A stretch of 64,000 nt of DNA, taken from the NCBI GenBank assembly GCA_964477545.1, contig CAYZEJ010000001.1, positions 11 to 64,010 of the forward strand. Direction: 5' to 3'. This stretch comes from an uncultured Anaerolineaceae bacterium. GTDB lineage: Bacteria; Chloroflexota; Limnocylindria; Limnocylindrales; CSP1-4. The position numbers and the translations under genes are program-made. This document shows positions 28,268-62,476 of this stretch, piece by piece. Each line of letters opens with the position of its first letter. The first letter of the stretch is position 1. The notes under the pieces were generated by a model, which saw only the letters and a list, made by a program, of their open reading frames with translations, had not been told where the DNA came from and searched no databases.

Positions 28268-28389
28268 GAGGAGGTCAGCTCGGCGACAGTGGCAACAACG
28301 AGTGTTCCAATCACGGGGCACCCGTGCTATGTTTCGTTGCATCGTTGGCGAGGGCGCGAGCCACTCGGACAAGGGGAGTTGGAGCGGAC

Positions 28390-37413: not shown

Positions 37414-37734
37414 CTACTCCGCTACTCGCGCGCGATCTCGCAACGGCATGAAGCCACGATGGACTGCGATCGTGCGTGGCGCGACTGGGCCACGCACGAG
37501 CTGGTCCTCGGTGGCGAGCCGCTCGACCAGGGCGTCGAGCTGGGCAGCGAAGGAGGCGGCGTCCGAGGTGACGACGACGGCGGCATCGGCGGGGACGTCG
37601 GAGGCCGGATGCAGATCCAGGCGTGCGGCGTAGCCGGCACGCTCAATGGTGCGGCGCGCGCGGCGGACGGCCTGGAACAGCGGCCCGGGGAGCGCGCCGT
37701 CGGGGTAGGTGACGACAATGTGAAGCACGCTCAC
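37414..37734 (-). CDS. Hypothetical 106-aa protein, translationally coupled to the XDH-family FAD subunit
   Basis: GTGA start/stop overlap with the upstream gene. No recognisable family. Confidence 0.5.
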   Translation of the reverse strand: MSVLHIVVTYPDGALPGPLFQAVRRARRTIERAGYAARLDLHPASDVPADAAVVVTSDAASFAAQLDALVERLATEDQLVRGPVAPRTIAVHRGFMPLRDRARVAE

Positions 37735-46288: not shown

Positions 46289-47021
46289 CGGCCTGCTCCA
46301 GATGCGCAGCGTCTCAGCTGGCTACGAAGCAGACCGGCCCAGCTGGGATCGACCGGTCATCAGCGAATTCGAACTGGACGTCGCTCTGGGCGAGCTGGTC
46401 ACGCTACTGGGTGCCAATGGCTCGGGCAAGTCTTGTGTTCTTCTCGCCACGGCCGGTCTGATCCGTCTGGCTGGTGGCTCGATCAGGTTCAACGGAAGCG
46501 ACCTGACGCGCTCCTCGGCCACAGACAGGGCGCGCAGGGGCATCAGCCTCGTGCCCGAAGGTCGCCGCCTTTTCCCCGGGATGACCGTTCGCGAGAATCT
46601 GGTCCTGGCCGCTGTATCACTGCATCGACCCGTTGACGAGGGGATCGAGACCGTTCTCGATCTGTTCCCTCAGCTACGCAATCTGCTCGACAGCGTCTCC
46701 GGGTCGCTGTCAGGGGGTGAGCAGCAGATGTGCGCAATCGGCCGTGGCTTGATGGCTCGCCCACGGCTCTTGCTTATCGACGAGCTTTCACTTGGACTGG
46801 CTCCGGTCATGGTCGAACGACTCGTGGATGCCCTCAAGCGAATTCACAGTGAGATGGGGATCACGGTCCTATTTGTCGAGCAGGCGGCAGATCTTGCCAT
46901 CGACATCGCCGACCGCGTGGTAGTCCTCTCGCTGGGCCGGAAGGTGTTCGATGGCACTTCGGCTGAGGCGGCCGCATCGCGCGACCTCATCGAACGCGCC
47001 TACCTCGGCCTACCCGTCTGA
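46281..47021 (+). CDS. LivF-type ABC ATPase
   Basis: Walker A GANGSGKS. ATG at 46281 overlaps the LivG stop. Confidence 0.85.
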   Translation: MTDGLLQMRSVSAGYEADRPSWDRPVISEFELDVALGELVTLLGANGSGKSCVLLATAGLIRLAGGSIRFNGSDLTRSSATDRARRGISLVPEGRRLFPGMTVRENLVLAAVSLHRPVDEGIETVLDLFPQLRNLLDSVSGSLSGGEQQMCAIGRGLMARPRLLLIDELSLGLAPVMVERLVDALKRIHSEMGITVLFVEQAADLAIDIADRVVVLSLGRKVFDGTSAEAAASRDLIERAYLGLPV

Positions 47022-47336
47022 CAGCTGAGTGGGTGTCGCGGGGGCAGCGGCAGACCGTGACCTCCACGGCGTTACGCGCGCGTGAAGGCCGCGCCATAGA
47101 AATGCCGAATCACTTGAGCGGCGTGGGAGGTTCGGCGCAGGGCGCGCTCAGGGAACGAGACCTCGCCACATATACGGCAGCGATTTCCGAGGAGAGTGAC
47201 CTCGCCCTCCGGCCCCACTGTCCAGCGTCCTATTCGCGGTTGCGCCAACTCGCCTCCCAGTCATGCCCCAGCGAGCGAACGGCTCCCTGACACTTTGGGC
47301 AAGTGGAGCGCAGTCTAGGAGCAGCCGGCGGACATC

Positions 47337-47350
47337 GCAACGATTGTTGC
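47337..47350. promoter_or_regulatory. Inverted-repeat motif GCAACGATTGTTGC (site 7), start of conserved promoter block 47337-47390
   Basis: Exact copy of the site-1 motif plus the downstream GAGCATGACAGTATCCGTTCCA block. 135 nt upstream of MFS gene 2. Confidence 0.5.
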
Positions 47351-47484
47351 AGCGTGTTGCAGAGCATGACAGTATCCGTTCCACGCCTCCCGGAGCCCTG
47401 GCTGCCCGGTGATCCGGCAAACACCTCGGAGGGTCCCACCGTTCATCGAATCACGACGGCCATTACCAACCGGGACGCGCGAGC

Positions 47485-48678
47485 GTGACTGAAGAACCAA
47501 AACCGGAAGAAAGCCCGGAAACGGACAGCGACCAGGGCGGGCAGGTCGACCGAACCTTCTCGGTGCTGTCTATCGCCGGGTTCTCCCTGTCGTTGGGGGC
47601 CGCTGGACTCGTTATGCCACTCGTGGCTCTCGCGTCTGGTTACGACCTGGCCGCGGTTGGCGTCCTGGCCGCGATCTCGGCGGTTTCGCAGCTCGGCTTC
47701 CGGCTGCTGCTGCCGTGGCTCCTGACGCGGTTCTCCGATCGCGACCTGATCGTCGCCGCCGAGATCATGATGGTCGGCTCTTTCGCCCTGCTCGTGGTCA
47801 GCCGCGAGCTGCCGGCGTTCGTTCTGGCGCAGCTGCTCCAGGGCGGAGCCCGAGCGCTCTTCTGGACGGCGAGCCAGACGCACGCGGTCCGTGGCTCTGG
47901 CGGCGTTGTCCGGTCCTTGGCGATGGTGCAGGCGGTGGGGAATGTCGGGCAGCTGATCGGCCCGGTCGTGGCCGGGATCGTGGCCGCCGAATCGCTCGAC
48001 CTCGCCCTCATCGTGTGTGGTGTGGCGGCGGCAGTAGGGCTAGTTTCCGGGTTCGCCATGACGACGCTGCCGACGTTCCCGAAACAGGTCCGTCACGACG
48101 GTCAGCGGATCTGGCGACGCCCAGGGGTGGACGTCGCCTGCTGGGCTTCCTACAGCGCAGGCGGCTGGCGCGCCATGCTCTCGTCGTACGTTCCCGTCGC
48201 CCTGGCGGCGGCCGGGCAACCTCCCCAGGTCATCGGCGTGCTGATGATGGTGGCCGAGGGGACTGGCGTGGCGGCGTCGGGGCTCCTCCTCCGGCGCCGC
48301 CCGCTCGAAGTCGGGACCGCGATCCAGCTGGCGGTCCTCATCGTCACCGCCAGCCTGATTGCATTCCCGTTCGTTGCCGCGAACGCGGCCGGAGCCGGAC
48401 TGGCGCTGGCGCTGGGCGGCCTGGGCTCTGGCCTGCTTATGAGCCTGGGGCCCGCGCTGGCGACCCAATCGGTGAGCGTCGAAGAGCGTGGCGAGGCGAT
48501 CGCGGTGGCCGGAACCTTCCGCGCCGTTGCCCTCCTCGTCACCCCCGGCGTGACAGCCGCCGCGCTCACGGTCGTCAGTCTCCCGGTCGGGCTGGTCGTG
48601 GCTGCGCTGGCCATTGGAGTTCCGCCCATAGCGGCTGCACTCCGAAGGACGCCTGCGCCCGCGTCGTCGAGCGGATGA
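47485..48678 (+). CDS. MFS transporter (paralog 2)
   Basis: About 70% identical to 12888-14096. Confidence 0.8.
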   Translation: MTEEPKPEESPETDSDQGGQVDRTFSVLSIAGFSLSLGAAGLVMPLVALASGYDLAAVGVLAAISAVSQLGFRLLLPWLLTRFSDRDLIVAAEIMMVGSFALLVVSRELPAFVLAQLLQGGARALFWTASQTHAVRGSGGVVRSLAMVQAVGNVGQLIGPVVAGIVAAESLDLALIVCGVAAAVGLVSGFAMTTLPTFPKQVRHDGQRIWRRPGVDVACWASYSAGGWRAMLSSYVPVALAAAGQPPQVIGVLMMVAEGTGVAASGLLLRRRPLEVGTAIQLAVLIVTASLIAFPFVAANAAGAGLALALGGLGSGLLMSLGPALATQSVSVEERGEAIAVAGTFRAVALLVTPGVTAAALTVVSLPVGLVVAALAIGVPPIAAALRRTPAPASSSG

Positions 48679-48770
48679 AACGTCCGTTGCACGTCGAGGT
48701 CTGTCGTGCATGTACGATTGCATCGGGTCCACGCGTGCGGGCCCGGGGGTAGCTGGGAGGCCTCTGAACC

Positions 48771-49754
48771 GTGCTGCGCATGACGATCGCGACTGGTCGG
48801 TACGACCGGACCGCCGCCCTCCACGACGGTCGTGTCCGACCCGAGGGCATTGACGCCACCTGGCTGGCACTCAACGTGGAGCAGACCTTCTGGCGCATGT
48901 TCCGCCACCAGGAGTTCGACGCGTCCGAGCTATCGCTGTCGGGAACGCTCGTCCGATTGGGCCGCGGTGTCACCGACTTCGTGCCGATCCCGGTCTTCCT
49001 GTCGCGCACGTTCCGCCACGAATGCATCTACGTCAACACGCGCGCTGGGCTGAAGGGGCCCGAGGATCTGGCGGGGCGCCGGGTCGGCTTGCCCGAGTTC
49101 CAGCTCACCGCCTGCGTCTGGGCACGCGGCCTCCTCGAGGACGAGTATGGGGTGCGCCAAGAGGACATCACGTGGATACAGGGCGGCCTCGAGCAGCCCG
49201 GCCGCCGACCCCAGGAGCCGGTGTCGCCACCTGGCGTGACGATCGAGGACGCGCCTGCCGGGGCAACGCTGTCCGCGATGCTTGCCGCGGGAGAGATCGA
49301 CGCACTGATAAGCCCGCGCCGGCCTTCAGTGTTCGGCGATGGAACCGGGCGTGTCGAGCGTTTGATCCCCAATGTCTGGGAGGCCAGCCGGGCGTATTAC
49401 GAGCGCACCAGGATCTTTCCGATCATGCACCTCGTCGCTATCCGGCGTCCGATCGTCGAGGCAAACCCCTGGGTCCCCCAGACGCTGTCGAACGCCTTCC
49501 TCGCGGCCAAGCGGCTGGCGGACGCTGACCTGAGAGACACAACAGCCTTGCCCATCGGGCTGCCGTTCCTGGTCCAGCACGCCGAGGAAACCGCCGAGTT
49601 GATGGGCGACGACTTCTGGCCGTACGGAGTCGAAGCCAATCGAGCGACGCTCGAGGCGTTCGTGCGCTACTCGCACCGTCAGGGCCTGATCCCGGAACTT
49701 CCGGACATCGACTCGCTCTTCCCGGCTTCAACACGCGAGGTCTCCCGGATCTGA
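48771..49754 (+). CDS. PhtD-like protein (paralog 2)
   Basis: MLRMTIATGRYDRTAALHDGRVRPEG N-terminus. About 65-70% identical to paralog 1. Confidence 0.65.
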   Translation: MLRMTIATGRYDRTAALHDGRVRPEGIDATWLALNVEQTFWRMFRHQEFDASELSLSGTLVRLGRGVTDFVPIPVFLSRTFRHECIYVNTRAGLKGPEDLAGRRVGLPEFQLTACVWARGLLEDEYGVRQEDITWIQGGLEQPGRRPQEPVSPPGVTIEDAPAGATLSAMLAAGEIDALISPRRPSVFGDGTGRVERLIPNVWEASRAYYERTRIFPIMHLVAIRRPIVEANPWVPQTLSNAFLAAKRLADADLRDTTALPIGLPFLVQHAEETAELMGDDFWPYGVEANRATLEAFVRYSHRQGLIPELPDIDSLFPASTREVSRI

Positions 49755-49755
49755 G

Positions 49756-50820
49756 ATGAGGTTCTCGATCGCATCTCTCGGCGAAGAGCCGGCCGACCGC
49801 TTCGTCCCGTACGTCCGCCTGTGCGAAGGACTGGGCTTCGACTCCTTCTGCCATGCCGACGAGAAATGGACCCGCGATGTGTACGTGCGCCTCGCACTGG
49901 CCGGCGCGGCGACCTCGCGGATCGGTCTCGGCATCACGGTTACCGACCCGTACACGCGACATCCGGCGCTGACTGCCCAGGCCACGGCGACGCTTTCGGA
50001 GGCGACAGGTGGCCGTCTGCGAGTCGTCCTCGGCGCGGGCAGCCACTTCGAGACGCTTCCTGGTTACGCGTCGGTCAGGCCCGCCGTCGGCATCCGCGAG
50101 TCGGCGGAGCTCATGCGCCGGCTGTGGGCCGGCGAACGCGTGACGGTCGACGGCGAGATGGTCAAGTTCACGAACGGGACCTTGGACTTCGAGCTGGCTC
50201 CTGAGCACCGGCCAGCGCTTTGGGTGGCGGGCCGCGGGGAATTCGTCCTGCAGTCGGGCGGCGCCGTCGGCGACGGGGTGCTCATCGGAAGTTTCGCGAC
50301 GCCCGAGGGCATTCGATGGGCCAAGTCGAAGATCGAGAAAGGCATGGCCTCGTCTGGACGGTCGTGGTCCGATGTGAGCCTGGCGTCGTGGCTCTATGTC
50401 GCCGTCCTGGAAAACGAAGACGATCCGGTGCCCGAGGGGGTGCGGCGCGGCGTCAGCCACGCGCTCTGGAGTAGCCGCGCAGTCGTTACCCCACTGCTCG
50501 AGGGCGTCGAGATGAAGAACGCCGACGAGTTCCGGCGGTTTCTGACCGATGCGCCGCACGAATGGTCGCCCGAGATCATGGCCGAGCTCCGCCGCCTCAT
50601 CCCGCGCGAGGTGTTCGATGTCCTTGCGCTGGTCGGAACCGCCGACCAGGTTGCAGGCCGGCTGGCGGCTCTCGAGGCGGAGGGCATCGAGGAGTGCATT
50701 GCGTGGCCATTCCCGCCGGACGGGATGGACGTCGAGGACTATGCGATCCGCCTGGGCAGCGAACTGCTGCCGCGCGTCCGTGGGATTCGCTCGCGGGGCG
50801 AATACCGACTCGTCGACTAG
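49756..50820 (+). CDS. LLM-class F420/flavin-dependent oxidoreductase (paralog 2)
   Basis: About 65% identical to 16945-18033. Confidence 0.85.
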   Translation: MRFSIASLGEEPADRFVPYVRLCEGLGFDSFCHADEKWTRDVYVRLALAGAATSRIGLGITVTDPYTRHPALTAQATATLSEATGGRLRVVLGAGSHFETLPGYASVRPAVGIRESAELMRRLWAGERVTVDGEMVKFTNGTLDFELAPEHRPALWVAGRGEFVLQSGGAVGDGVLIGSFATPEGIRWAKSKIEKGMASSGRSWSDVSLASWLYVAVLENEDDPVPEGVRRGVSHALWSSRAVVTPLLEGVEMKNADEFRRFLTDAPHEWSPEIMAELRRLIPREVFDVLALVGTADQVAGRLAALEAEGIEECIAWPFPPDGMDVEDYAIRLGSELLPRVRGIRSRGEYRLVD

Positions 50821-50830
50821 CCTTGAAACC

Positions 50831-51361
50831 ATGGTTCTGACCGCTGCGAAGCCCCGCCCCATCTACCTTGCCGGGCAGTGGGTCGAATCGCCCGATGTGC
50901 TTGAGGTCAGCAATCCGGCCGAGCCCTCGGGCTCAGCGGGAACCACCTACAACGCCACTCCCGACCAGTACGAGCAGGCCGTGCAGGCCGCAGTGGCCGC
51001 CTTTGAGGTGACGCGGTCGCTTCCGGCATACGAACGCGGCCGAGCGCTGCGCGAGATAAGCGCCGGCCTCACCGCCCGCAGGCTCGAGCTGGGCGCCCTC
51101 ATCCGCTCGGAGATCGGCAAGATCACTGCCGACGCCGTCCTCGAGGTTGACCGAACCGCCCTGACGTTCCGGCTGGCGGCCGAGGAAGCGGAGCGAATGG
51201 TCGGCGAGGTCATTCCACTCGACCTGCTGCCCAGTTCGAAGGGGAGGGTGGGAATCACGCGTCGCTTTCCGATCGGTCCCGTGGCGGGAATCAGCCCGTT
51301 CAACCTGCCTGGCACCCGCTCGACGGCGGCCGCTACATCGGCACCGGCGTCGCCGTGGTGA
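50831..51361 (+). pseudogene. N-terminal ~177-aa fragment of an aldehyde dehydrogenase (homolog of 26822-28267), fused to UbiD remnant DNA
   Basis: Aligns to ALDH residues 1 to about 170 and stops matching at ISPFNLP. The next nucleotides read WHP(L)DGGRYIGTG, which is UbiD sequence, in another frame. Confidence 0.6.
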
Positions 51362-52238
51362 TCAAGGACCCCGACTCAGACTGGATCAACGTCGGGACGT
51401 ACCGGGTCATGATCCACGACGACAAGCGGATCGGGATCTACATCGCGCCGGGCAAGCACGGCAAGCAGTTTCAGGACGCCTACTTCAAGCGCGGTGAGCC
51501 CTGTCCGATCGCGATCGTCTGCGGAATGGACCCGTTGCTGTTCCTGGCCTCAACGCTCGAGGTGCCGCAGGGCGTGTCCGAGTACGACTGGGTGGGCGGG
51601 ATCCGCGGTGAGCCCTATCCGCCACCGGCCGCAAGGACGAGCCGATGATGGAGGTCGCAGGTCTATATCACCGCAACGACCCGATCATCCTCGGCGTCCC
51701 CCCGAACAAGCCGCCGTGGGAGCCGATACGCTACCGCGAGTACCTCCGGTCCGCGCTGCTCCTCCGGAACATGAAGGCAGCCGGGGTCCCCGGCGTCGTG
51801 GACGCGATGTGCTATGCGTTCGGCGGAAACCGACTGTTCACCGTCGTCTCCATCCAGCCGCGCTACGCCGGCCACGCCCGGCAGGCGATGCACGTCGCAG
51901 CAATGGGCCACGCCGGCGCGTACATGGGCCGCATCGTGGTCGTCGTCGAGGACGACATCGACGTCACCGACATCACCGAGGTGCTATGGGCGATGGTCAC
52001 CCGCGGCGACCCGGAACGCTCGATCGACATGATCAAGCGCGCTTGGTCCGGCCCGATCGACCCGGCCATCCATCCGGACCTCAAGGGCCACAACTCGCGG
52101 CTGCTGTACGACGCGACGCGGCCATGGGAGTGGCGCGACAAGTTCCCACCGGCGATCGGTCCTGATCCCGAGACGAAGGCCCGCACCCGCGAGCAATGGG
52201 GCTGGATCCTCTCCGGCGGCGAGCCGCCTTCACGGTGA
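51355..52238 (+). pseudogene. UbiD-family decarboxylase remnant (homolog of 15148-16683) lacking the N-terminal ~150 aa, with an internal frameshifting deletion
   Basis: Two consecutive frames (51355-51648 and 51645-52238) match UbiD 1 middle and C-terminal regions at about 80% identity. About 50 aa between GEPYP and EPMMEV are deleted, which shifts the frame. Confidence 0.6.
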
Positions 52239-52245
52239 CGATCCC

Positions 52246-53235
52246 ATGAACCCGGTGGAGTTGACTCTCGCCATGCACGACTACGACCACACCCGCGACG
52301 TCGTCACGGGCAAGGTTCCGGTCGAGGGAGTTCGGCTGCGCACGGTCGAGCTGACACCGCCCGAGCTGAACGCCAGGTTCTCCAAGCTGCGTGAGTGGGA
52401 GATCTCCGAGTTCGGCTTGGGCAAGTACATCGCCCTTCGCGCCGGCGGCGACGACGGCATAACCGCGATCCCCGTCTTTCCGGCGCGCGCCTTTCGCCAG
52501 TCGGCCATCTACGTTGCGGCCGACAGCTCGCTCGAGGCGCTGGAGGAGCTGGCCGGAAAACGTGTCGGCATCCCGGAGTGGGCGCAGACAGCGGTGGTGT
52601 GGGCGCGCGGTCTGTTGGCCGATCACCACGGCGTCGATCTCACCACCATCGACTGGTATCAGGCTGGAGTCGACGAGCCCGGCCGTGCCGAGAAGGTGGC
52701 CATCCAGCTACCGGCCGGGGTGCGGCTCACCGCGCGCCCGGACGCGACCCTTCAGGAGCTGCTCCTCGGCAGCGAGCTCGACGCGATCATCACTGCCCAG
52801 CCGCCGAAGGCGTTTGCCAGCACTGACGGCCGCATCAGGCGGTTGCTTCGTGAGCCACGCGCGGCTGAGGAGGCGTACTTTCGCGCCACCGGCATTTTCC
52901 CGATCATGCACCTGATCGCGATCCGGCGCGACGCGTACGACGCGGATCCGTGGATCGCGCGCAATCTGCTCACCGCTTTCGAGACTGCCAAGCAACGCAG
53001 CGACGAGCGCCTCGCCGACCCGATGTCGCCGCGCATGCCGCTGCCCTGGAGCGCCGACGACGCATCCCGGGCTCGTCACGTCTTCGGGGGCGATCCCTAT
53101 GCGTACGGCATCGAGCCGAACCGCCGGACGCTCGACGCACTGCTCGATTACGCAACCGCCCAGGGCATCGCTGCGCGCCGCCTGGAGGTCGATGAGCTAT
53201 TCGCCCCGACCGTGCGGGAGACAATCCGACGGTGA
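52246..53235 (+). CDS. PhtD-like protein (paralog 3)
   Basis: MNPVELTLAMHDYDHTRDVVTGKVPVEG N-terminus, same family as the other paralogs. Confidence 0.65.
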   Translation: MNPVELTLAMHDYDHTRDVVTGKVPVEGVRLRTVELTPPELNARFSKLREWEISEFGLGKYIALRAGGDDGITAIPVFPARAFRQSAIYVAADSSLEALEELAGKRVGIPEWAQTAVVWARGLLADHHGVDLTTIDWYQAGVDEPGRAEKVAIQLPAGVRLTARPDATLQELLLGSELDAIITAQPPKAFASTDGRIRRLLREPRAAEEAYFRATGIFPIMHLIAIRRDAYDADPWIARNLLTAFETAKQRSDERLADPMSPRMPLPWSADDASRARHVFGGDPYAYGIEPNRRTLDALLDYATAQGIAARRLEVDELFAPTVRETIRR

Positions 53236-53244
53236 GGCGTGTGT

Positions 53245-53340
53245 AATTTCCAGGAAATGGAAGATTCACGTGCGAAAAACGTTGACGGCAACATTTGTTG
53301 CTGGCAGACTCGCCCGGCGCACGGAATTTTCCGCGCATTC
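53245..53340. promoter_or_regulatory. AT-richer regulatory region with palindromes ATTTCCAGGAAAT and GGAATTTTCC, GTTGAC box and GCAACATTTGTTGC (site 8, 53288-53301)
   Basis: A perfect 13-nt palindrome at 53246-53258, an exact GCAAC-N4-GTTGC at 53288-53301, and a second TTCC/GGAA inverted repeat at about 53321-53330. Upstream of the ABC operon, whose RBS GAGGAGG is at 53376-53382. Confidence 0.45.
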
Positions 53341-53390
53341 GCTTGCGGTCTGCGGCATCGGAACGGAACCGCTTTGAGGAGGAATGTCGA

Positions 53391-54473
53391 GTGAATATGG
53401 CCCGCGCGGGCGCCCTGGTGGCGACCGCAATCATGATGGTGGCGTGTGCGGCACCAGCCGCGCCGACACAGGCGCCTGCCACAGCGGCACCGGCCACAGC
53501 GGCACCGGCGACTCCGGACGCCAATCCGAGCCCCGGCGCACCTGAAAAGACGACGCTCCGTATCGTCCAGGGGTCTAGCCCGGACTACACCCAGATCGCA
53601 TTGACCAAGGCGATCGAGTATCTGAACGAGCGTGGCATCCAGACCACGTTCGAAAGCGTCGACGATACCGACGTCGCCACCCGCGCGGTCATCGCCGGCC
53701 AGGCCGACATCGTTGTCAACTCGCTCTTCTTCGGCATCAACGCCGTCAAGGAGGGCATCCCGCTCGTGACGATCATGGCCGACGCGCAGACGCTCGACTA
53801 TCTGCTCGTCAGCACGCCCGACGTCACCGATCCCAAGCAGCTCGAGGACGGCGGAACGATGGGCATCAACCAGCCCGGCGACCTGGGCGCAACCGTGGCC
53901 GACCAGTGCCTCAAGTTCCTCGACGTGGACGTGACGACGGTGCAGTTCGTGCAGGTCGGCGGCACCGGCGCGCGCATGGCGGCACTCCTTGCCGGCCAGA
54001 TCCAAGCCGCTCCTGCGCACGCTGCAGAGGCTCTTGCCGCGGTAGACGAGGGCGGTTTGACCGTGCTGGCCGACTGCGGCGAGGCGATCGGCTCGTTCCT
54101 CCAGACTGGCGCCACGGTTGACTCCAACTGGCTCGCCGCTAACCCGAACCTGGCACAGCACTTCGTCGATGCCTACATCGACGCCCTGCGCTGGGCGGAG
54201 GACAACAAGGACGAATACATGGAGCTGTCCCGGACAGTTCTGCCCGAGATGCCGGAGGCACAGCGCAGCCCGGCCTATGACGTCTTCAAGAACGTCGGCC
54301 TCTTCGCTGTCAACGGCGGGCTCAGCCCGGCGAGCATCCAGAAGCTGACCGACATCGGCCTCGACGCCAGCTCGATCGAGGAGCCGGTGCCGGATAACTG
54401 GTACACGATGGATCTGATCGAGAACTACCTCGCCCGCAACGACGAGGTCGATCAGCCGAACTTCCGACCGTAG
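53391..54473 (+). CDS. NMT1/THI5/SsuA-like ABC substrate-binding lipoprotein
   Basis: Lipobox VAC with Ala/Pro/Thr linker. Start GTG 53391 or ATG 53397. Confidence 0.75.
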   Translation: MNMARAGALVATAIMMVACAAPAAPTQAPATAAPATAAPATPDANPSPGAPEKTTLRIVQGSSPDYTQIALTKAIEYLNERGIQTTFESVDDTDVATRAVIAGQADIVVNSLFFGINAVKEGIPLVTIMADAQTLDYLLVSTPDVTDPKQLEDGGTMGINQPGDLGATVADQCLKFLDVDVTTVQFVQVGGTGARMAALLAGQIQAAPAHAAEALAAVDEGGLTVLADCGEAIGSFLQTGATVDSNWLAANPNLAQHFVDAYIDALRWAEDNKDEYMELSRTVLPEMPEAQRSPAYDVFKNVGLFAVNGGLSPASIQKLTDIGLDASSIEEPVPDNWYTMDLIENYLARNDEVDQPNFRP

Positions 54474-54564
54474 TCGGCGAGCGGTAATTCGATCCAGGGT
54501 CAATCACCTGCAGTGTGGCCGGCGAGAGCCGGCCACACTGCACTTCTAACGGAGAAGGCCAGCC

Positions 54565-55341
54565 GTGCTTGAGATGGTGAAGGTCAACAAGGCGTTCGCC
54601 ACGTCGGCCGGCAAGGTCCTGGACGACTTCACCCTGTCGGTCAAGCCTGGCGAATTCGTCAGCCTGATCGGGCCATCCGGCTGCGGCAAGACGACTGCAC
54701 TGAGGATCGTGGCCGGGCTGCTCTCCCCCTCCAGCGGGAAGGTCGTCGTCAACGGCAAGGAGAGTCTCGGACCATCGCGCGAGAAGGCCATCGTCTTCCA
54801 GCACTTCAACCTGTTCCCGTGGCGGACGGCGATCGACAACGTTGCGTACGGCCTCGAGATCCACGGTGTCAAGAAACAAGAGCGCCTTAAGATCGCGCGC
54901 GAATACCTCGATCTGGTTGGCTTGAGGGCGTCCGAGAAGCAGTTCCCCGCCCAGCTGTCGGGCGGAATGCGTCAGCGCATCGGTATCGCGCGCGCACTCG
55001 CGATCAACCCGAAGCTGCTGCTGATGGACGAGCCCTTCGGGGCCCTCGACGCCCTTACGCGGGAGTACCTACAGGGTCAGCTGGCGCGGATCTGCGAGGA
55101 GCGCAACCTCACGACGCTGTTCGTGACCCATTCGATCGACGAGGCGATCTACCTGTCCGACCGTGTCGTGGTGATGGGCGTACAACCCGGGCGCATAATC
55201 GCGGAGTTCCCCATCAGCCTGCCCAAGCCGCGGGCTGACTACAACTTCCGGGCTGAGGCGGTGTACGCGAAGGTGCGCGAGGAGATCTGGCAGCTGCTCG
55301 AGCAGCAGATCAGCAAGACGGCCGAGGCGGTTCCCGTATGA
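54565..55341 (+). CDS. ABC transporter ATPase (SsuB/TauB/NrtD type)
   Basis: Walker A GPSGCGKTT, signature LSGGMRQR, Walker B LLLMDEPF. Confidence 0.9.
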   Translation: MLEMVKVNKAFATSAGKVLDDFTLSVKPGEFVSLIGPSGCGKTTALRIVAGLLSPSSGKVVVNGKESLGPSREKAIVFQHFNLFPWRTAIDNVAYGLEIHGVKKQERLKIAREYLDLVGLRASEKQFPAQLSGGMRQRIGIARALAINPKLLLMDEPFGALDALTREYLQGQLARICEERNLTTLFVTHSIDEAIYLSDRVVVMGVQPGRIIAEFPISLPKPRADYNFRAEAVYAKVREEIWQLLEQQISKTAEAVPV

Positions 55342-56171
55342 CCGCGGTCGCACGGCCGATCAACGCGGGGGGCTCGCCCAACCCGGTCGTCGAAGCGGCC
55401 GGTCGCCTGGCCGGCAGGATCTTCAGCCGCAAGAACGGCTTGCGGCTGGCGTCGCTGATCGTCGTCTTCGGCGTGTGGGAGCTGTGGGGGTCGGCCAACC
55501 CGTTCTTTGCCTCACATCCCTCGGCAATCTTCGAGGCGGCCCGCGAGGATCTTCTCCGGGTGGTCCTGCCTGCCTTCGTCACGACCATCACAGCGCTGCT
55601 TGTTGGCCTCGCGATCGCCACGCCGATCGGCATCGCTATTGGGTTCGCGATGGGTCGCGTCCGGCTGCTTGACGTGGCATTGACGCCGTACGTCAACGCG
55701 ATCTACGCGACACCGCGTATCGCGCTCATCCCCGTGCTGGTGCTGTGGCTCGGCATCGGGTTCGAAATGCGGATCACGATCGTCGCGCTGGGCGCGGTCT
55801 TCCCACTGATCATCAACACCTACGCCGGAGCGAAGCACGTCGATCCCGAACTGCTCGACACCGGCCGGTCCTTCATGGCCAGCCCCGGTCAGATGCTGCG
55901 CACCATCGTCATGCCGTCGTCGCTGCCGTTCATGTTCGCTGGCTTCCGCATCGGCATCGGCCGCGGCGTGTCGGGCGTGATCGTCGCCGAGATGACATCG
56001 GCGCTGACCGGGCTCGGGCGGATCATGATCGAGAACGCCAAGTACCTTCAGATCGCCGAAGTGTTCGTCAGCATCATGGTGCTGGGCATCTTCAGCCTTT
56101 TCCTCTTCGAGGGCGTCGCGCGAGTCCAGAAGAGGCTCACGCCGTGGGGCAATGTGGAGCGCCTGAAGTGA
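55338..56171 (+). CDS. ABC permease (SsuC/TauC type), first of two
   Basis: Binding-protein-dependent transport system inner-membrane component. ATGA overlap with the ATPase. Confidence 0.85.
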   Translation: MTAVARPINAGGSPNPVVEAAGRLAGRIFSRKNGLRLASLIVVFGVWELWGSANPFFASHPSAIFEAAREDLLRVVLPAFVTTITALLVGLAIATPIGIAIGFAMGRVRLLDVALTPYVNAIYATPRIALIPVLVLWLGIGFEMRITIVALGAVFPLIINTYAGAKHVDPELLDTGRSFMASPGQMLRTIVMPSSLPFMFAGFRIGIGRGVSGVIVAEMTSALTGLGRIMIENAKYLQIAEVFVSIMVLGIFSLFLFEGVARVQKRLTPWGNVERLK

Positions 56172-57052
56172 CGGTCCGCAATCCGGCCAGCGAGGCCGGC
56201 ATCGCCACCCCGAGTCTGGCCGAGAGTCCGGAGCTCGCAGCGTCGCCGATCGAGGAACTCGATCCGACGAAGAAGCCGGGCTTCCTCTACACCCGCACAG
56301 GGATGCTCATCGTCCGCATCGCGACCGCTGTGCTTATCTTTGGCGCCTGGGAATGGTACGGCCAGGGCGTAAGCCGGGCACTGTTGGCGCCTCCGTCGCG
56401 GATCGTGGCCAAGGCCTTCGAGCTCCTTCAGAACGGCGAGATCATCGCAGCGCTGAGTCAGAGCGTTACGACGATGCTCATCGGACTCTCCATATCGATC
56501 GCCGTCGGCATTCCGCTGGGCATGGTCATGGGTCGATTCAAGACCGTTGAGTCGGTGCTCGACCCGTACGTGCTTTTCCTGTACGTGCTGCCGAGTGTCG
56601 CGTTCGTGCCGGTGTTCGTGGTGATGTTCGGGCTCGACATCAAGCTGCGCCTCGCCTTGATCGTCATGTCGGCGGCCTTCCCATTGATCATCAACACGAT
56701 CGCCGGGGTGAAACACGTGGACAGCGAGCTGATCGACGGCGGCAAGGCATTTACCGCGAACGAGCGGCAGATCATGTGGACGGTGCTGCTGCCCGGATCG
56801 CTGCCGTTCATATTTGCCGGCCTGCGCATCGGCTTCTCGGCGGCCTGGGTGGGCTGCATCGTGGCCGAGATGACGGCGCTGATCACCGGCGTCGGCGGGC
56901 TGCTCCTCGAGGCCTCTGCCCGGTTCCGCACTGCGGACGTATTCGTGGCGATATTTGGCATCATGGCCGTTGCGGTCACGATTCAATGGTTCACGGCTCG
57001 CCTCGAAGTCTGGCTCACGCCGTGGGCACGCACTGGGAACGAAGCGACCTAG
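56168..57052 (+). CDS. ABC permease (SsuC/TauC type), second of two
   Basis: GTGA overlap with the first permease. The track ORF 55745-57052 carries a shadow N-terminal extension. Confidence 0.85.
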   Translation: MTVRNPASEAGIATPSLAESPELAASPIEELDPTKKPGFLYTRTGMLIVRIATAVLIFGAWEWYGQGVSRALLAPPSRIVAKAFELLQNGEIIAALSQSVTTMLIGLSISIAVGIPLGMVMGRFKTVESVLDPYVLFLYVLPSVAFVPVFVVMFGLDIKLRLALIVMSAAFPLIINTIAGVKHVDSELIDGGKAFTANERQIMWTVLLPGSLPFIFAGLRIGFSAAWVGCIVAEMTALITGVGGLLLEASARFRTADVFVAIFGIMAVAVTIQWFTARLEVWLTPWARTGNEAT

Positions 57053-57107
57053 GGATCGCGCAGCCGGCCGCAGCACGTTCGGCAACGCTGCGCTAGAAGG
57101 AGGACCG

Positions 57108-58619
57108 ATGTCGATGCTGGACCTGCGCGACTTCGTCGCGGCAGTCGAGAGAGAGCTGCCGGACAAGGTGGTTCACGTCGATCGGCCGGTGAATCCCGCC
57201 GACTTCGAGGTGACGGCGATCCTGCAGCAGCTCGAGGATGCCGGCCGCAATCCGATGGCGCTGTTCCATCGGCCTCTCAACCTCTTCGGCGAGGTCTCGA
57301 AGTTCCCGCTCCTGACCAATGTCTTTGCCGAGCGCGAACGGTGCGCCCTCGCCCTCGGGATGCCGCCGTCGGAGTCGAAGTTCCCGCTCAGTCTCGAGTA
57401 CGGCCGGCGCGAGAAGGAACGCATTCCGCCCACGGTGGTGCCGGTGTCCGAGGCACCCGTCAAGGACGTCGTGCAGTTCGGCGACGAGGCCGACCTGCGC
57501 CAGTTCCCCATAGTCCGACACCACCACATGGACCCGGCGGCCTACATTGACATGACCCCGATCATGCGCGACCCGGACACGGGCGCGTACAACGCCGCGT
57601 ATCTGCGCATGATGTACAAGGGCCCGCGTCGGCTGGGGCTGCACATGTCGCCGCGACACAACTGGCAGATCACCCGAAAGCACGAGGAGCGCGGCCTGCC
57701 GACTCGCGTTGCGATCGTGGTCGGCCACCACCCGGCGTTCTTTCTGGGGACGCTCAACGTCGCGCCGTTCGGTGACGACGACTACGAGGTCATCGGCGCG
57801 GTGGCCGGCCAATCGCTTCGGCTCACGCCGTCGGCCACCTGGGGCGACGAGTTCATGATCCCGGCCGACGCGGACATAATCATCGAGGGTGAGATCCCTC
57901 CGGGTGTGCGCGAGGTCGAGGGCCCCTTCGGCGAGTTCCCGGGGACCTACGGGCCGCAGCGCCTGCGCTGGGTCATCGACGTGACGGCCATCAACCACCG
58001 CCACAATGCGATCTACCAGGACGTGTTCGTCGGCCACGCCGATGACTGGATCCAGGGCGGCCTGCCCAAAGAGGCCAGGATCTACAACCGGATCAAAGGC
58101 GTCGTGCCCTCAGTCACCGCCGTGCATCTGCCGGTTTCGGGCGTCTGCAGGCTGCACTGCAACGTTTCCATTGACAAGAAGGTCGATGGTGAGTCGAAGC
58201 AGGCCGCCTTCATCGTCCTCGGCGAAGTCGACATGATCAAGCACGTCTTCATCGTCGATGCGGACATCGATGTGTTCGACGATCGCCAGGTGCTGTGGGC
58301 CGTAGCGACGCGCGTTCAGGCAGATCAGGCCATCGACATCATCAAGAATGTCAAAGGCAATACGCTCGACCCGTCCCAGACGGACCCGATCATGACGACC
58401 AAGATGATCGTGGACGCCACGAAGCCGGTGCAGCGCCCATTCTCGGAGCGCATCATGGTCCCCGAAGAGGCGAAGCAGCGGGTGCCGATCGCGGAATTCG
58501 TCAGGGAGAGCGGGGAGCAGCCAGCATACGAGCCAGACACGGGCGCGGACTCGCAGGACGAGGCAGGGGAGGCAAGCGCTGCCGAGCCCGTGGTGGCGAC
58601 GCGCGGCGGGGGGGCCTGA
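57108..58619 (+). CDS. UbiD-family decarboxylase (paralog 3; VdcC/BsdC-like hydroxyarylic acid decarboxylase type)
   Basis: EGPFGEFPG motif. RBS GAAGGAGG 7 nt before ATG 57108. Followed by a small Cys-rich ORF. Confidence 0.9.
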   Translation: MSMLDLRDFVAAVERELPDKVVHVDRPVNPADFEVTAILQQLEDAGRNPMALFHRPLNLFGEVSKFPLLTNVFAERERCALALGMPPSESKFPLSLEYGRREKERIPPTVVPVSEAPVKDVVQFGDEADLRQFPIVRHHHMDPAAYIDMTPIMRDPDTGAYNAAYLRMMYKGPRRLGLHMSPRHNWQITRKHEERGLPTRVAIVVGHHPAFFLGTLNVAPFGDDDYEVIGAVAGQSLRLTPSATWGDEFMIPADADIIIEGEIPPGVREVEGPFGEFPGTYGPQRLRWVIDVTAINHRHNAIYQDVFVGHADDWIQGGLPKEARIYNRIKGVVPSVTAVHLPVSGVCRLHCNVSIDKKVDGESKQAAFIVLGEVDMIKHVFIVDADIDVFDDRQVLWAVATRVQADQAIDIIKNVKGNTLDPSQTDPIMTTKMIVDATKPVQRPFSERIMVPEEAKQRVPIAEFVRESGEQPAYEPDTGADSQDEAGEASAAEPVVATRGGGA

Positions 58620-58623
58620 TCAC

Positions 58624-58872
58624 TTGGCCACGATCTTCTACGTCCATTGCCCGCGCTGCAACGGCAAGTTTCCCTGCCACCAGGAGTTGTGGCAGGTCGA
58701 GTACTCGCTGCTCTGTCCGTTCTGCCAGCTGAGCTTCCACCAGGAAGAGAGCCCGCTGATCATCTCCGCGACTGGCGAACGGAAGCCTGGTTCGCGCATC
58801 AAAAGCTTCGCCGCGATCGCTGCGCCGGTCGATGGCGACGTTGACCCGTCGGCGAACGCCGAGTCCATGTAG
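58624..58872 (+). CDS. Small Cys-rich zinc-ribbon protein (82 aa), candidate BsdD/VdcD-like partner of the UbiD decarboxylase
   Basis: TTG start 4 nt after the UbiD stop. CPRCNGKFPC...CPFCQ motifs. Analogy to the small D subunits of bsdBCD/vdcBCD-type operons is inferred from position and size, not from sequence recall. Confidence 0.5.
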   Translation: MATIFYVHCPRCNGKFPCHQELWQVEYSLLCPFCQLSFHQEESPLIISATGERKPGSRIKSFAAIAAPVDGDVDPSANAESM

Positions 58873-58909
58873 CCCCGCCTCGTCAGTCGCCGATCAAACG
58901 TTGGCGGGC

Positions 58910-60013
58910 TCAGGGATGGACGTCCTCCAGGAACCAGTCGGTGGGGATCTCCCTGCCTATGCCGCGTTCGCGTGCCCGCTCATAGGCGAGCGCGGCCACT
59001 GCCGCGAACTGGAGGCCCGTGCCAATGGTGTTAACAAAGCAGGTGTGAGCTGCTGACTGCGGTGCAGGCACCCGGCCGCTGATGAGCTCGGCGAGGTCGG
59101 GCTGGCGGGTCAGGTCGACCGTGCCTGCCTGCCGCTGGGCACGCAGTGACTTCGCGTCGTCGTTCACGCCCTCTTCCGGATCATGGGCATAGATCGGTTG
59201 CTCGCCCATGCCCACAACATAGTTGGCCGGTCGATCCGCACGCGTGTGGACGACAACCTGCGCGGCGCGCTCCAGCACTCCGGGACCCAGTTCCAGCTCC
59301 TTCACGCACGTGACATGGGCATGGGGCTTCAGCCAATCCGCCTCGATCACCGGGGTGATGCTGTTCGTGGCGCTGCCGACGATGTCTGCGCCCTCGGCAG
59401 CCTCGCGCGCAGATCCCGCCGGCCTCACACTGATGCCCAGCTCCTGGGCGAGCTCTGCCGCGACGCGCTCGCGATTGGCTCGATTCGGGCTGAAGACGCG
59501 GATCTCCTTGATCGGTCGCACCGCGCACATGGCCCACGCCTGAGCGTGCGCCTGCCAGCCTGATCCCAGGAGGCCGTACGTTTCGGCTCGCTCGACGGCC
59601 ATGTAGCGCGCCGCAAGCGCGTTCGTGCCGGCGACGCGCATCCGTTGCATCACGCCGTCGGGCATGATGGACAGGGGCTCGCCGGTTCGCGTACTGAACA
59701 GCAGGACGAGTCCGACGTACTTGCCGTTGCCGGCCGCCGGGTGCTTCTCCTTGCGAACGCCGTCCTTGGCCACCCGCCAGCGGATCACGTCGGAGTTGAG
59801 CCGAAGGACGGCCACCTCGCGGATCGGGAGCATGCCGTCCATGGTTTTGAAGACGTACCTGCCGTTCTCGTCGCTCGGACCGAACATGTCGCTTCGTGGC
59901 CTGCTGATCGCGCGCCGTTCGGCCAGCTCAACGTAGCTCTCGTGGAGGCGCTCGATGCATTGATCGATGTGAAGGAGCGCGGCTATTTCGTCGTTGTCCA
60001 GCAACAGCGTCAT
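58910..60013 (-). CDS. Ornithine cyclodeaminase / mu-crystallin family protein (paralog 2)
   Basis: OCD family (LLGSGWQAHAQ Rossmann region). Confidence 0.85.
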   Translation of the reverse strand: MTLLLDNDEIAALLHIDQCIERLHESYVELAERRAISRPRSDMFGPSDENGRYVFKTMDGMLPIREVAVLRLNSDVIRWRVAKDGVRKEKHPAAGNGKYVGLVLLFSTRTGEPLSIMPDGVMQRMRVAGTNALAARYMAVERAETYGLLGSGWQAHAQAWAMCAVRPIKEIRVFSPNRANRERVAAELAQELGISVRPAGSAREAAEGADIVGSATNSITPVIEADWLKPHAHVTCVKELELGPGVLERAAQVVVHTRADRPANYVVGMGEQPIYAHDPEEGVNDDAKSLRAQRQAGTVDLTRQPDLAELISGRVPAPQSAAHTCFVNTIGTGLQFAAVAALAYERARERGIGREIPTDWFLEDVHP

Positions 60014-60060
60014 GACTCAGTCCACCTCCTTCACTCCGAGCGATTGATACCAAGGCTCGC

Positions 60061-61089
60061 CTATTCGGCGGGCTCCCACGCGATCGTGCTCGGCGCGAAC
60101 AGATCCTCGAGCGCGATATCCGTTGTCGTGAGCCCCTGCTCGCGACTGTGCCGTATCAACCGCTCCAGTGCCACGCGGTTGGCCCTGATCCCGTAGGGGA
60201 ATGGATCCGGCCCAAACCACGACTTCACCTGGGCAAGGAACTCCCAGCGAAACACGAGACCCAGCGGCACGGACTCGACCGGGTCCTTTTCGGCCAGCGC
60301 CTTTGCCTCCAGGAACGCCTGGTAGATGTTGAGCGCGAGCCAGGGATGTTTCCGCGCGAGCTCGCCGCGGATCACGTACGTGTGGTTAATCGGGATGAAC
60401 CCGTGCGCTTCGAAGAAGCGCCGGCCCTCGGCGATCCCGTCGCCGAACGCGGGAACGACCGTGCTCCAGTCGCCCGAGCCCTGGATGCGCTGCGAACGCT
60501 CGATGACGTTGTCGGCGCCGACCGTCCGGTTGGGGCGGACGAAAGCCGCGTCCAGCTTGCCACCGAGGAGCATCGAGGCGAGGCTCTCGTCGGGCGGAAT
60601 TCGCTTGAGCGAGATGCCCATAGGTGGGGCGAAGCCGGTCGCCCCGCCGTGACTCGTCGACTCGCCACGCTCCATGAACCAGCTGATCGACGACGGCTTA
60701 ACGCCGAAGTCGTGCTCGAGCACCGCCCGAAGCCAGACGGCCGCGGTCTGCTGATACTCCGGTACGCCGACCCGCTTGCCGGCCAGATCGGACGGCTTGT
60801 GGATGTTGGCGTCCGCGCGGGCGTCGAGCTCGATCTGGAAGAAGCGCCGTGACGGAAACGCGGGGATCGCGACGAGGTCGATCCCGCGCTCTTTAGCCAT
60901 CAGGAACGACGACAGGGACATCTCCGAAACGTCGAAGTCGGCGAACCGGAGTTGGCGCCAGAAGATCTCACCGGGGTGGCCGATGGTGGGGATCAATTCG
61001 ACCCCGTCAGGACGGACGATGCCGTCGACGAGAGGTCGGACGCGCTCGTTGATTCGCGTCGCGAAGGAAAGCTGCAAGCGCTTCATCAA
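60061..61089 (-). CDS. PhtD-like protein (paralog 4)
   Basis: Same NMT1-related family as the other three paralogs. No signal peptide. Confidence 0.65.
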   Translation of the reverse strand: MMKRLQLSFATRINERVRPLVDGIVRPDGVELIPTIGHPGEIFWRQLRFADFDVSEMSLSSFLMAKERGIDLVAIPAFPSRRFFQIELDARADANIHKPSDLAGKRVGVPEYQQTAAVWLRAVLEHDFGVKPSSISWFMERGESTSHGGATGFAPPMGISLKRIPPDESLASMLLGGKLDAAFVRPNRTVGADNVIERSQRIQGSGDWSTVVPAFGDGIAEGRRFFEAHGFIPINHTYVIRGELARKHPWLALNIYQAFLEAKALAEKDPVESVPLGLVFRWEFLAQVKSWFGPDPFPYGIRANRVALERLIRHSREQGLTTTDIALEDLFAPSTIAWEPAE

Positions 61090-61117
61090 ACCTCCTGTCA
61101 GGCACTCTCGATGGGAA

Positions 61118-62476
61118 TCAGAGCGAGACGGCGGCGGTCAACGCGGCGATCGACGGCGACGACTCGAGTGAATCGACGGCTGCGACGATCGACGAGACGC
61201 GGTCGCTGAAGCCGATCGCGACGGCGGACCGGTCGAGCTTCTGCCGGACCTCGTCGGCCGAGAGTGGCCGCCGCGGATCGCCCGGTGGGATGTCCACCTG
61301 TTGCACGAACTCTCGGCCCGCCCGGTCGCGCAGAGTCACCCGGGCGCCGGTCGTTGCCAGGGTTGCGTCCTCCGCGACGACAACGGACTCCGTAGCGAAG
61401 AGTCCGACTCCCGCATCGGCTCGCCGCTCGTCGGCCGTCTGATCGAGCCATGCCTCGCCGTCCGCGAGGACAACCGCAACGGTCCAGCGCGCCGACTGGA
61501 GCGCGGCGAGGCGTGTCTGCCAGCCTGAGCTGCCGTTCAGGGAGAAGGCGCGCGGCGGAAGGTTGACGCGCACGTCGGCAACAGTGGCAAGCCCGGCGGC
61601 CCCAATGGGCAAACCGAGCTGGCCGCGTATGGCGAGCGTGGCATCAATGACCGGCTGAAGCGAGCTCGCGCCCGGCCAGCGCCGCAGCGCTATCGACTCA
61701 AGGAGGTAGTCCGAGCCCAAGCGGTCTGTGAGGCGTTCCATGCGGCCGGTATCGGCGTACGCCGCGAGGAGCCCGCCGCGAGTGGCCGTCAGAGCCGCTT
61801 CCGAGGCGTCGATGCCCGCAGCAGCGAGCTCTGCCGAAAGTAAGCCCGACACCCCGCCGCGGGCCTGATGAACCTTGACACCGCTCGTGCCCAGCGCCGC
61901 AAAGGTGCCGGCCGCTTGACTCGCCGCATGCCCAATCGCGAAGCGGACGCCGCGCCCGTCGAGCCGTGCCACGCGCGCGGCGGCGCATGCTGCGCCGATC
62001 GCGCCCGCGATGCCAGGGTTGTGCCACCCGCGCGCCTCATACGCGTCAGTGTGCAGAGCCTCAGCGACACGGACGGAGACCTCCATCCCCGCCGCAATAC
62101 CGGCGAGCACATCAGCGCCGGTGGCTCCATGCAGCTCGGCGGCGGCAAGTGAGGCGGGCAAGACTTCAGGCAACACGTGCGTCAGCGTCTCGCGGTGCAC
62201 GTCGCCCAGCGTCGGGGCCGCGATCTGGAAACCGTTGAGCATCGCGGCGCCGCCAGCAGCTCTCGGTGTCCCGGCCAGCACCGTCGACGTGCCAGTTCCG
62301 AACACAGACTCGGCCACCGACTCCATCTCGGAATGGTGCTCGGCGAGCACTCCGGCCAGACCGCACGCGAGGGCATCCAAGATGTGCAGCCGTACGCGCT
62401 CCAGGATGCCCGGAGGCATGTCCGCCGGCCGAAGGCTGGAGACGAACTCGGACAGAGTTTCCTCGGCGGTCGTCAC
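61118..62476 (-). CDS. MmgE/PrpD family protein (2-methylcitrate dehydratase / cis-aconitate decarboxylase family)
   Basis: MmgE/PrpD N-terminal region (LHILDALACGLAG). GTGA overlap with the upstream LLM gene. Confidence 0.85.
   Translation of the reverse strand: MTTAEETLSEFVSSLRPADMPPGILERVRLHILDALACGLAGVLAEHHSEMESVAESVFGTGTSTVLAGTPRAAGGAAMLNGFQIAAPTLGDVHRETLTHVLPEVLPASLAAAELHGATGADVLAGIAAGMEVSVRVAEALHTDAYEARGWHNPGIAGAIGAACAAARVARLDGRGVRFAIGHAASQAAGTFAALGTSGVKVHQARGGVSGLLSAELAAAGIDASEAALTATRGGLLAAYADTGRMERLTDRLGSDYLLESIALRRWPGASSLQPVIDATLAIRGQLGLPIGAAGLATVADVRVNLPPRAFSLNGSSGWQTRLAALQSARWTVAVVLADGEAWLDQTADERRADAGVGLFATESVVVAEDATLATTGARVTLRDRAGREFVQQVDIPPGDPRRPLSADEVRQKLDRSAVAIGFSDRVSSIVAAVDSLESSPSIAALTAAVSL

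Follow-up and report, generated by a model that had tools for sequence, protein, structure and literature searches.

Positions 50831-52238 of a stretch of DNA from an uncultured Chloroflexota bacterium (64,000 nucleotides (nt) of GenBank contig CAYZEJ010000001.1, referred to in full as the window) hold the start of an aldehyde dehydrogenase (ALDH) gene that runs out of frame into what is left of a gene for a UbiD-family decarboxylase, an enzyme that works with prenylated flavin mononucleotide (prFMN). In our judgement this locus is, with high probability, a genuine, recently formed and non-functional mosaic pseudogene produced by two illegitimate, homology-independent events, one of which would have brought the two genes together and the other of which would have removed 124 nt from inside the UbiD gene.

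Three-frame translation of window positions 50800-52260 resolves the locus into one ALDH segment and two UbiD segments, each in a different frame (Table 1), with no extra stop or frameshift inside any of the three and with the stop codon of the last at 52236-52238. The corresponding Pfam matches are far above chance level, namely E=2e-27 for Aldedh (positions 1-146 of a 461-position profile), E=1.5e-31 for UbiD (31-133 of 206) and E=1.6e-26 for UbiD_C. A first-pass annotation, made from the letters of this DNA, had read the locus as an ALDH N-terminus joined to a UbiD remnant with a second internal deletion, and had noticed UbiD sequence in another frame beyond the ALDH part; frames, Pfam matches and alignments agree with that anatomy, the UbiD part starting at WHPLDGGRYIGTG in the frame of 51310. 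Two hallmarks of a pseudogene are seen, in that the segments retain 81-98% amino acid (aa) identity to intact orthologs and that 320 ALDH codons, 130 UbiD codons and the 124-nt internal block have gone.

The ALDH remnant is 81% identical at the aa level to intact orthologs in three relatives, L054, L055 and L115, and 59% identical to the window's own ALDH at 26822-28267 (tBLASTN within the window). In DNA alignments, the window and two intact ALDH genes stay in register up to ...AACCTGCC / ...TTCAACCTGCC; past 51309 the intact genes read GCTGGG... and the window reads TGGCACCCGCTCGAC, and a BLASTN match to the L054 ortholog likewise stops at 51309, so that the earlier placing of the end of ALDH similarity at about 51320 has to be moved to this base. 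Intact UbiD genes at the join point read CC(A/G)TGG-TGGCA(T/C)CC, with the T at 51310 opening the UbiD codon TGG, and DNA alignments with intact relatives leave no microhomology (0 nt) at the join. ALDH codon 160 is thereby linked to UbiD codon 131 out of frame, and the open reading frame (ORF) that can be called across the join meets a TGA at 51359-51361 after 16 nonsense codons. An identical 176-aa product is present in the NCBI protein collection, where it is the sole member of its cluster.

On the UbiD side, the 130 codons missing at the 5' end amount to 27% of 482. The first UbiD segment is 90-98% identical at the aa level to the intact proteins of L006, L007 and L008, and the second 92-95%; gene calling from the ATG at 51645 gives the latter as an ORF of 197 aa. 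This ORF is one of 67 proteins clustered at 90% identity; the nine of them that were fully examined have 482-506 aa, and the shorter ones, among those read, sit on contigs of about 1-2.5 kb. Between the two segments, the DNA alignment with five intact UbiD homologs shows a single gap of 124 columns, in agreement with the protein alignment. The window reads ...GAGCCCTATC(CG)CCACCGGC... across this deletion, where the CG at 51620-51621 can be assigned to either side and so forms a 2-nt microhomology. The deleted stretch, VVKAPITGLPIPATAEIVLEGYLH..PEGPFGEWHGYY, encodes 41 residues (VVKAPITGLPIPATAEIVLEGYLHxDQVxPEGPFGEWHGYY) and takes with it the whole of the conserved EGPFGEWHGYY loop; PEGPFGEWHGYY is kept in all intact homologs examined, including the nine full-length cluster members. 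A second frameshift had previously been placed at 51645-51648, with a loss of about 50 codons. The lesion in fact lies some 25 nt away, at 51619-51622, and the loss measured against the five intact homologs is 41 codons and 1 nt; positions 51645-51648 mark the point at which the old frame runs into a TGA and the following ORF starts with an ATG.

What was lost bears directly on function. The ALDH remnant is without ELGGNA, which carries the catalytic Glu, and GGQLCIS, which carries the catalytic Cys, both lying beyond residue 160 in the L054 ortholog; the pairing of catalytic Cys and general-base Glu within a domain of about 460 residues, by which membership of the family is judged, is thus not found, and a working ALDH product would not be expected. 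Compared with the NAD(P)-dependent ALDH superfamily (PF00171), the remnant shares the start of the profile and the position after a luciferase-like monooxygenase (LLM) gene, and lacks two-thirds of the protein. Compared with the UbiD family (PF20695, PF01977 and PF20696; closest structure PDB 7pda; model enzyme Aspergillus niger Fdc1), it shares residues 131-234 and 276-482 and lacks the N-terminal domain, the beginning of the prFMN domain and the Glu loop, in a broken frame: UbiD_N is absent, the UbiD domain partial and UbiD_C present. Of the Glu-Arg-Glu/Asp network of these enzymes, the NVGTYR motif with its Arg is present and the EGPFGEWH loop deleted. In A. niger Fdc1 the conserved Glu-Arg-Glu network is needed for activity, the E282Q variant being inactive and E277Q nearly inactive (PMC5818171); by motif spacing, the E-x4-E-x-H of the deleted loop would map to Glu277, Glu282 and His284 of that enzyme (PMC5818171). 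With the N-domain and both catalytic glutamates gone, a working UbiD product is likewise improbable.

Table 1. Features of the mosaic locus and of genes discussed with it (window coordinates)
Feature	Position	Strand	Remarks
ALDH 5' remnant, residues 1-160 (codons 1-159 plus 2 nt of codon 160; full length about 480)	50831-51309 (51309/10)	+	Frame of 50831, MVLTAAK...GISPFNLP; Pfam, DNA alignment
ALDH-UbiD join	51307-51314	+	CC/TGGCAC, break between 51309 and 51310; out of frame
Callable ORF, 176 aa	50831-51361	+	ALDH 1-160 plus 16-residue out-of-frame tail GTRSTAAATSAPASPW
UbiD first segment, residues 131-234	51310-51621	+	Frame of 51310, WHPLDGGRYIGTG...WVGGIRGEPYP; part of prFMN-binding domain, NVGTYR motif present
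Internal deletion join	51619-51622	+	124 nt = 41 codons + 1 nt, frame-shifting
UbiD second segment, residues 276-482 and stop	51621-52238	+	Frame of 51621, ATGRKDEPMMEVAG/ATGRKDEPMMEVAGLYHRNDP...GGEPPSR(stop); end of prFMN domain and whole UbiD_C domain
LLM	49756-50820	+	Pfam Bac_luciferase E=3e-48; last intact gene of left cluster
4,5-Dihydroxyphthalate-decarboxylase-like gene, 329 aa	52246-53235	+	PDB 9jp7 E=1e-64; first intact gene of right cluster
Four 327-342-aa paralogs	18049-19035 (+), 48771-49754 (+), 52246-53235 (+), 60061-61089 (-)		30-63% identical
UbiD1, intact paralog	15148-16683	-	Pfam UbiD_N, UbiD and UbiD_C all present
UbiX-like flavoprotein	9778-10401	-	PF02441 E=3e-41

The two halves belong to different gene clusters, each of which is found intact in relatives. 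The left cluster consists of genes for a major facilitator superfamily (MFS) transporter, a PhtD-like protein, the LLM and the ALDH. In L055 and L115 the LLM gene is followed by a full-length ALDH, and identity to the window is 83% for the PhtD-like protein, 87% for LLM and 81% for ALDH over the retained part; in L054, too, LLM lies directly before a full-length ALDH. In L115, the closest relative for this flank, a complete 480-aa ALDH closes the operon. Beyond it lie unrelated, convergent genes, first a 132-aa ORF, then those of a FAD-binding subunit and of a molybdenum hydroxylase, and after these the gene of a thiamine pyrophosphate (TPP) enzyme.

The right cluster consists of UbiD, the 329-aa gene, a substrate-binding protein (SBP), an ATP-binding cassette (ABC) ATPase, two permeases and a second UbiD. 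The JGI contig L006 carries, in order, enoyl-CoA hydratase (ECH), flavin reductase, an intact UbiD of 482 aa, the 329-aa gene, an NMT1-type SBP, the ABC ATPase, two permeases and the second UbiD, and continues with a small ORF and, on the minus strand, a 341-aa gene, PrpD and LLM; its genes follow the order of window 51.3-63.5 kb, with aa identities of 60-92%, and only an extra gene of the ornithine-cyclodeaminase (OCD) family in the window breaks the colinearity. The 329-aa protein is 78-79% identical to the product of the gene after the intact UbiD in L006 and L008. The order ECH, flavin reductase, UbiD recurs in L008, L114 and L009, a contig of a Limnocylindrales metagenome-assembled genome; the first two genes stand directly before UbiD in L006, L008 and L114 and with some spacing in L009, and in L114 the end of a CoA-transferase-like gene, recognised by eye from the translation, precedes ECH. 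The most similar UbiD (98% and 95% for the two segments) is that of L007, where it lies behind a UbiX-like gene. The extra gene of the window, of the ornithine-cyclodeaminase/mu-crystallin family (58910-60013, minus strand), has the second UbiD on one side and the 342-aa gene on the other and is absent from L006; a paralog with 29% identity adjoins UbiD1 at 14139-15122 (minus strand).

The first-pass annotation had suggested that related genomes be searched for an intact ancestral ALDH-UbiD arrangement. Each half is intact in relatives, never side by side: in a genome scan, a metagenome scan, protein searches and context look-ups, ALDH was adjacent to UbiD in no sampled relative. Within the 64-kb window there is no ortholog-level match to the flavin reductase or its companion ECH, and there are no reciprocal pieces, neither a C-terminal fragment of the ALDH nor an N-terminal fragment of the UbiD.

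From these observations we propose the following course of events. A single deletion would have joined ALDH codon 160 out of frame to codon 131 of the UbiD gene, bridging two clusters that lie apart in all sampled relatives and removing the 3' 320 codons of ALDH, whatever lay in between (the flavin reductase and ECH genes at the least) and the 5' 130 codons of UbiD; with the two remnants sharing a strand, this is the most economical explanation. An independent deletion of 124 nt inside UbiD, before or after the first, would have cost the gene 41 codons, the EGPFGE(W)H loop among them, and thrown it out of frame. Homologies of 0 and 2 nt at the two joins fit illegitimate recombination. The description of the junction as an illegitimate-recombination scar therefore stands in so far as these short homologies and the loss of the 3' two-thirds of ALDH are concerned; the loss at the 5' end of UbiD is 27% rather than a third, and the deletion itself is something we infer.

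Neither join has a repeat or a mobile element that would readily explain it. No mobile elements or long repeats were found at the joins, where there are only short, chance-level repeats, and an Rfam scan of 49-54 kb returned no structured RNA match. An 18-nt direct repeat, CGCGGTGAGCCCT(G/A)TCCG, occurs at 51490-51507 and 51604-51621, the second copy reaching right up to the 124-nt deletion. We rejected it as the cause of the deletion: the two copies consist of native UbiD codons (RGEPCP and RGEPYP), which makes the contact with the deletion probably coincidental, and the partner lies on the wrong side. Programmed frameshifting was rejected because the 41 conserved codons and the 130 N-terminal codons are physically absent.

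Some of our observations weigh against the reading of a recent, deletion-born pseudogene, and these are best taken together with the alternatives that they would favour. As regards the mode of joining, the two clusters are chromosomal neighbours in none of the relatives, so that the case for a single deletion falls short of proof; the join would look identical after an inversion, after a translocation, or after an insertion followed by loss. If the join did arise by inversion, by translocation or by insertion of the UbiD cluster, the lost halves, or the flavin reductase and ECH genes, would survive elsewhere in the genome. We consider this unlikely. In its favour, the two clusters are adjacent in no sampled relative and the window is visibly rearranged with respect to L115. 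Homologs of the genes that follow ALDH in that relative (L115:8628-14978) lie at window 37731-41731 (minus strand) and 28324-30159, that is, the molybdenum hydroxylase and TPP genes at 37.7-41.7 and 28.3-30.2 kb, 10-20 kb upstream of the ALDH remnant, and the relocation of these genes and of the FAD-binding subunit indicates larger rearrangements between the two genomes. In favour of a deletion are the shared strand of the two remnants and the lack, in the 64-kb window, of any reciprocal fragment or flavin reductase, together with the general point that deletion is the commonest origin of bacterial pseudogenes of this shape.

A quite different possibility is that the locus is an assembly artefact, either a chimeric contig join between 51309 and 51310 or a collapsed 124-nt gap, and that the real genes are intact. 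The source is a metagenome-assembled contig, and the mosaic products, of 176 and 197 aa, have been recorded only from a single contig in a single sample, on whose origin a literature search with the run accessions brought up nothing. Logan contigs from run SRR6868923, made by a second assembler, match the window at 100% identity and reproduce both joins: L003, equivalent to window 46753-51350, runs 40 nt past the ALDH-UbiD join, and L001, equivalent to window 51332-61929, spans the 124-nt deletion. As a second assembler gives identical joins, a simple sequencing error is unlikely; as ALDH and UbiD have no shared sequence at the join, there is no repeat to prompt a false join in the assembly graph. 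The 124-nt loss and the gene-to-gene join are also unlike homopolymer-indel errors, and GC content and GC at third codon positions (GC3) are equal on both sides of the join. Set against this, the Logan contigs may come from the deposited contig's own run, in which case they represent an independent assembler and not independent data, and L003 and L001 overlap by only 19 nt, their break at 51332-51350 lying 22-40 nt to the right of the join, so that these contigs end and begin within 40 nt of it. UbiD1 shares at most about 20 identical bases at this break, which was likely caused by other UbiD-bearing organisms in the sample; a branch in the graph, from other UbiD genes in the sample or from a co-existing allele, is possible. 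Taken together, we leave an artefact only a slim chance.

The remaining alternative concerns whether the remnant is dead, and for this the pattern of substitution is informative. Comparison of the UbiD remnant with intact orthologs over 308 shared codons gives a ratio of nonsynonymous to synonymous divergence (dN/dS) of 0.06-0.09, compared with 0.06-0.11 between intact genes; for the ALDH remnant it is 0.14, compared with 0.20 for intact pairs. The UbiD remnant has no private changes at sites invariant in 11 intact orthologs and only four private changes in total, all conservative and at variable sites, and Tajima relative-rate tests were not significant (chi-square <=2.8). The nearest sampled ortholog is at a dS of about 0.55, and by a rough estimate neutral evolution over even 1/10 of the terminal branch would bring in replacements exceeding in number all 17 differences counted. 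The codons of the remnants thus look as if still under purifying selection, which implies that inactivation would be very recent relative to the divergence from the nearest sampled orthologs. The decay that had been called ongoing is not what the sequence displays, there being two structural lesions and no measurable point decay; the locus would rather offer a clean, datable case of very early gene loss in an uncultured member of the Chloroflexota, caught with two large lesions and before any point decay.

The same figures can be turned the other way, as relaxed selection of the kind looked for in a pseudogene is not seen (dN/dS of 0.06-0.14, at or below that of intact pairs) and a total lack of point decay also fits selection on the remnant ORFs. 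The remnant might then be alive, with the 197-aa UbiD_C ORF or the split pieces under selection, or the fusion kept for promoter sharing. In the manner of coupled genes, the ATG at 51645 and the TGA that ends the frame before it share bases (ATGA); the gap to the next gene is just 7 nt, and nothing resembling a terminator was found on the plus strand in 47.0-54.6 kb. Against this, the dN/dS values span the whole divergence from the orthologs, so low values are expected for a very recent pseudogene too; the pieces have neither the UbiD N-domain nor the two catalytic glutamates; the ATG-ATG is the intact gene's native P-[LVM]-M; and the cluster of the 197-aa ORF, as described above, has full-length members wherever these were fully examined, the shorter ones among those read lying on short contigs. 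We therefore regard a living remnant as very improbable. Equally improbable is its adaptive variant, an operon fusion through which the promoter of the MFS, PhtD-like and LLM genes would come to drive the 329-aa gene, the ABC transporter and the second UbiD, with selection on the remnant ORFs, the 197-aa one in particular.

The decay had also been ascribed to a duplicated module. A recent duplication of UbiD1 as the origin of the remnant was rejected on account of their divergence: the remnant is 76% identical to UbiD1 at the aa level, with a dN of 0.17, as against a dN of 0.035-0.06 to its orthologs, and the two segments taken singly are 82% and 76% identical to UbiD1 by tBLASTN within the window, which also places a third, distant UbiD of about 30% identity at 56955-58619. 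UbiD1 belongs to the same family and subfamily, with the NCBIfam phenylphosphate carboxylase beta model ranking first, below its cutoff; it differs from the remnant in its gene context and in having orthologs of its own, and falls in its own 90% cluster. The sequences thus point to the remnant as an old paralog of UbiD1 and an ortholog of a widespread lineage (90-98% identity). The window does contain two paralogous gene sets, namely MFS, OCD, UbiD1, LLM and PhtD-like at 12.9-19.0 kb and MFS, PhtD-like and LLM at 47.4-50.8 kb. They are 60-68% identical and differ in gene order, and each has closer orthologs elsewhere, the first in L063 (87-89%) and the second in L055 and L061 (83-91%), from which it follows that the duplication is old. 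Judged by synteny, the remnant would ancestrally have been part of the downstream cluster rather than of any duplicated module, its true neighbours being the 329-aa gene, the ABC transporter and the second UbiD. The many UbiD and PhtD-like genes of the window are accordingly to be seen as old paralogs and not as recent duplicates.

As a phenomenon the locus is ordinary, and its significance lies mostly in annotation. It resembles other bacterial deletion-type fusion pseudogenes in its two unrelated, truncated genes joined out of frame, its microhomology of 0-2 nt, its additional frame-shifting deletion and the intact orthologs in its relatives; nothing about it is unusual in kind, and what stands out is that two operons are bridged and that point decay has yet to appear. 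Its three ORFs, of 176, about 97-104 and 197 aa, are best annotated as one pseudogene and left out of the count of ALDH and UbiD genes when the aromatic-acid metabolism of the organism is being inferred.

Several further observations were made on the ALDH lineage. The ALDH of L054 (L054:654-2093, JGI Ga0499862_0634518) has an in-frame TAG at codon 224 (VED(stop)RFKLL, where paralogs have GAG) and, despite it, aligns in one frame over its full 479 residues; either the lineage was disrupted a second time, independently, or the TAG is a sequencing error. Two short ALDHs on long contigs, P0007 and P0112, were considered as further truncated copies and rejected, being fragmented gene calls in an unrelated context. 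In L004 and L005 (ENA ERZ25039524 and ERZ25039575), the ALDH, HerA and acyl-CoA dehydrogenase genes are each called in at least two fragments, which looks like the result of uncorrected indel errors, so that their short proteins are no evidence of truncation.

The surrounding region is rich in genes for non-oxidative decarboxylases, with three UbiD-family genes (one of them dead) and four 4,5-dihydroxyphthalate-decarboxylase-like genes, and contains transporter genes (TctC and TctA, MFS and ABC systems) as well as genes for CoA-transferase, ECH and thiolase. The best hits of the ALDH and of the 329-aa protein are to Candidatus Limnocylindrales (Chloroflexota), and the genome, which is of high GC content, is probably that of a member of Candidatus Limnocylindria. 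One of the four 327-342-aa paralogs was compared with 4,5-dihydroxyphthalate decarboxylase (PDB 9jp7) and matched it at E=1e-64; no Pfam or NCBIfam model reaches its cutoff for any of the four, which give only weak NMT1, phosphonate-binding and SsuA matches, and the family appears to be without a curated model. The UbiX-like flavoprotein is, from its sequence, likely to be the prFMN synthase for the UbiD enzymes of the region.

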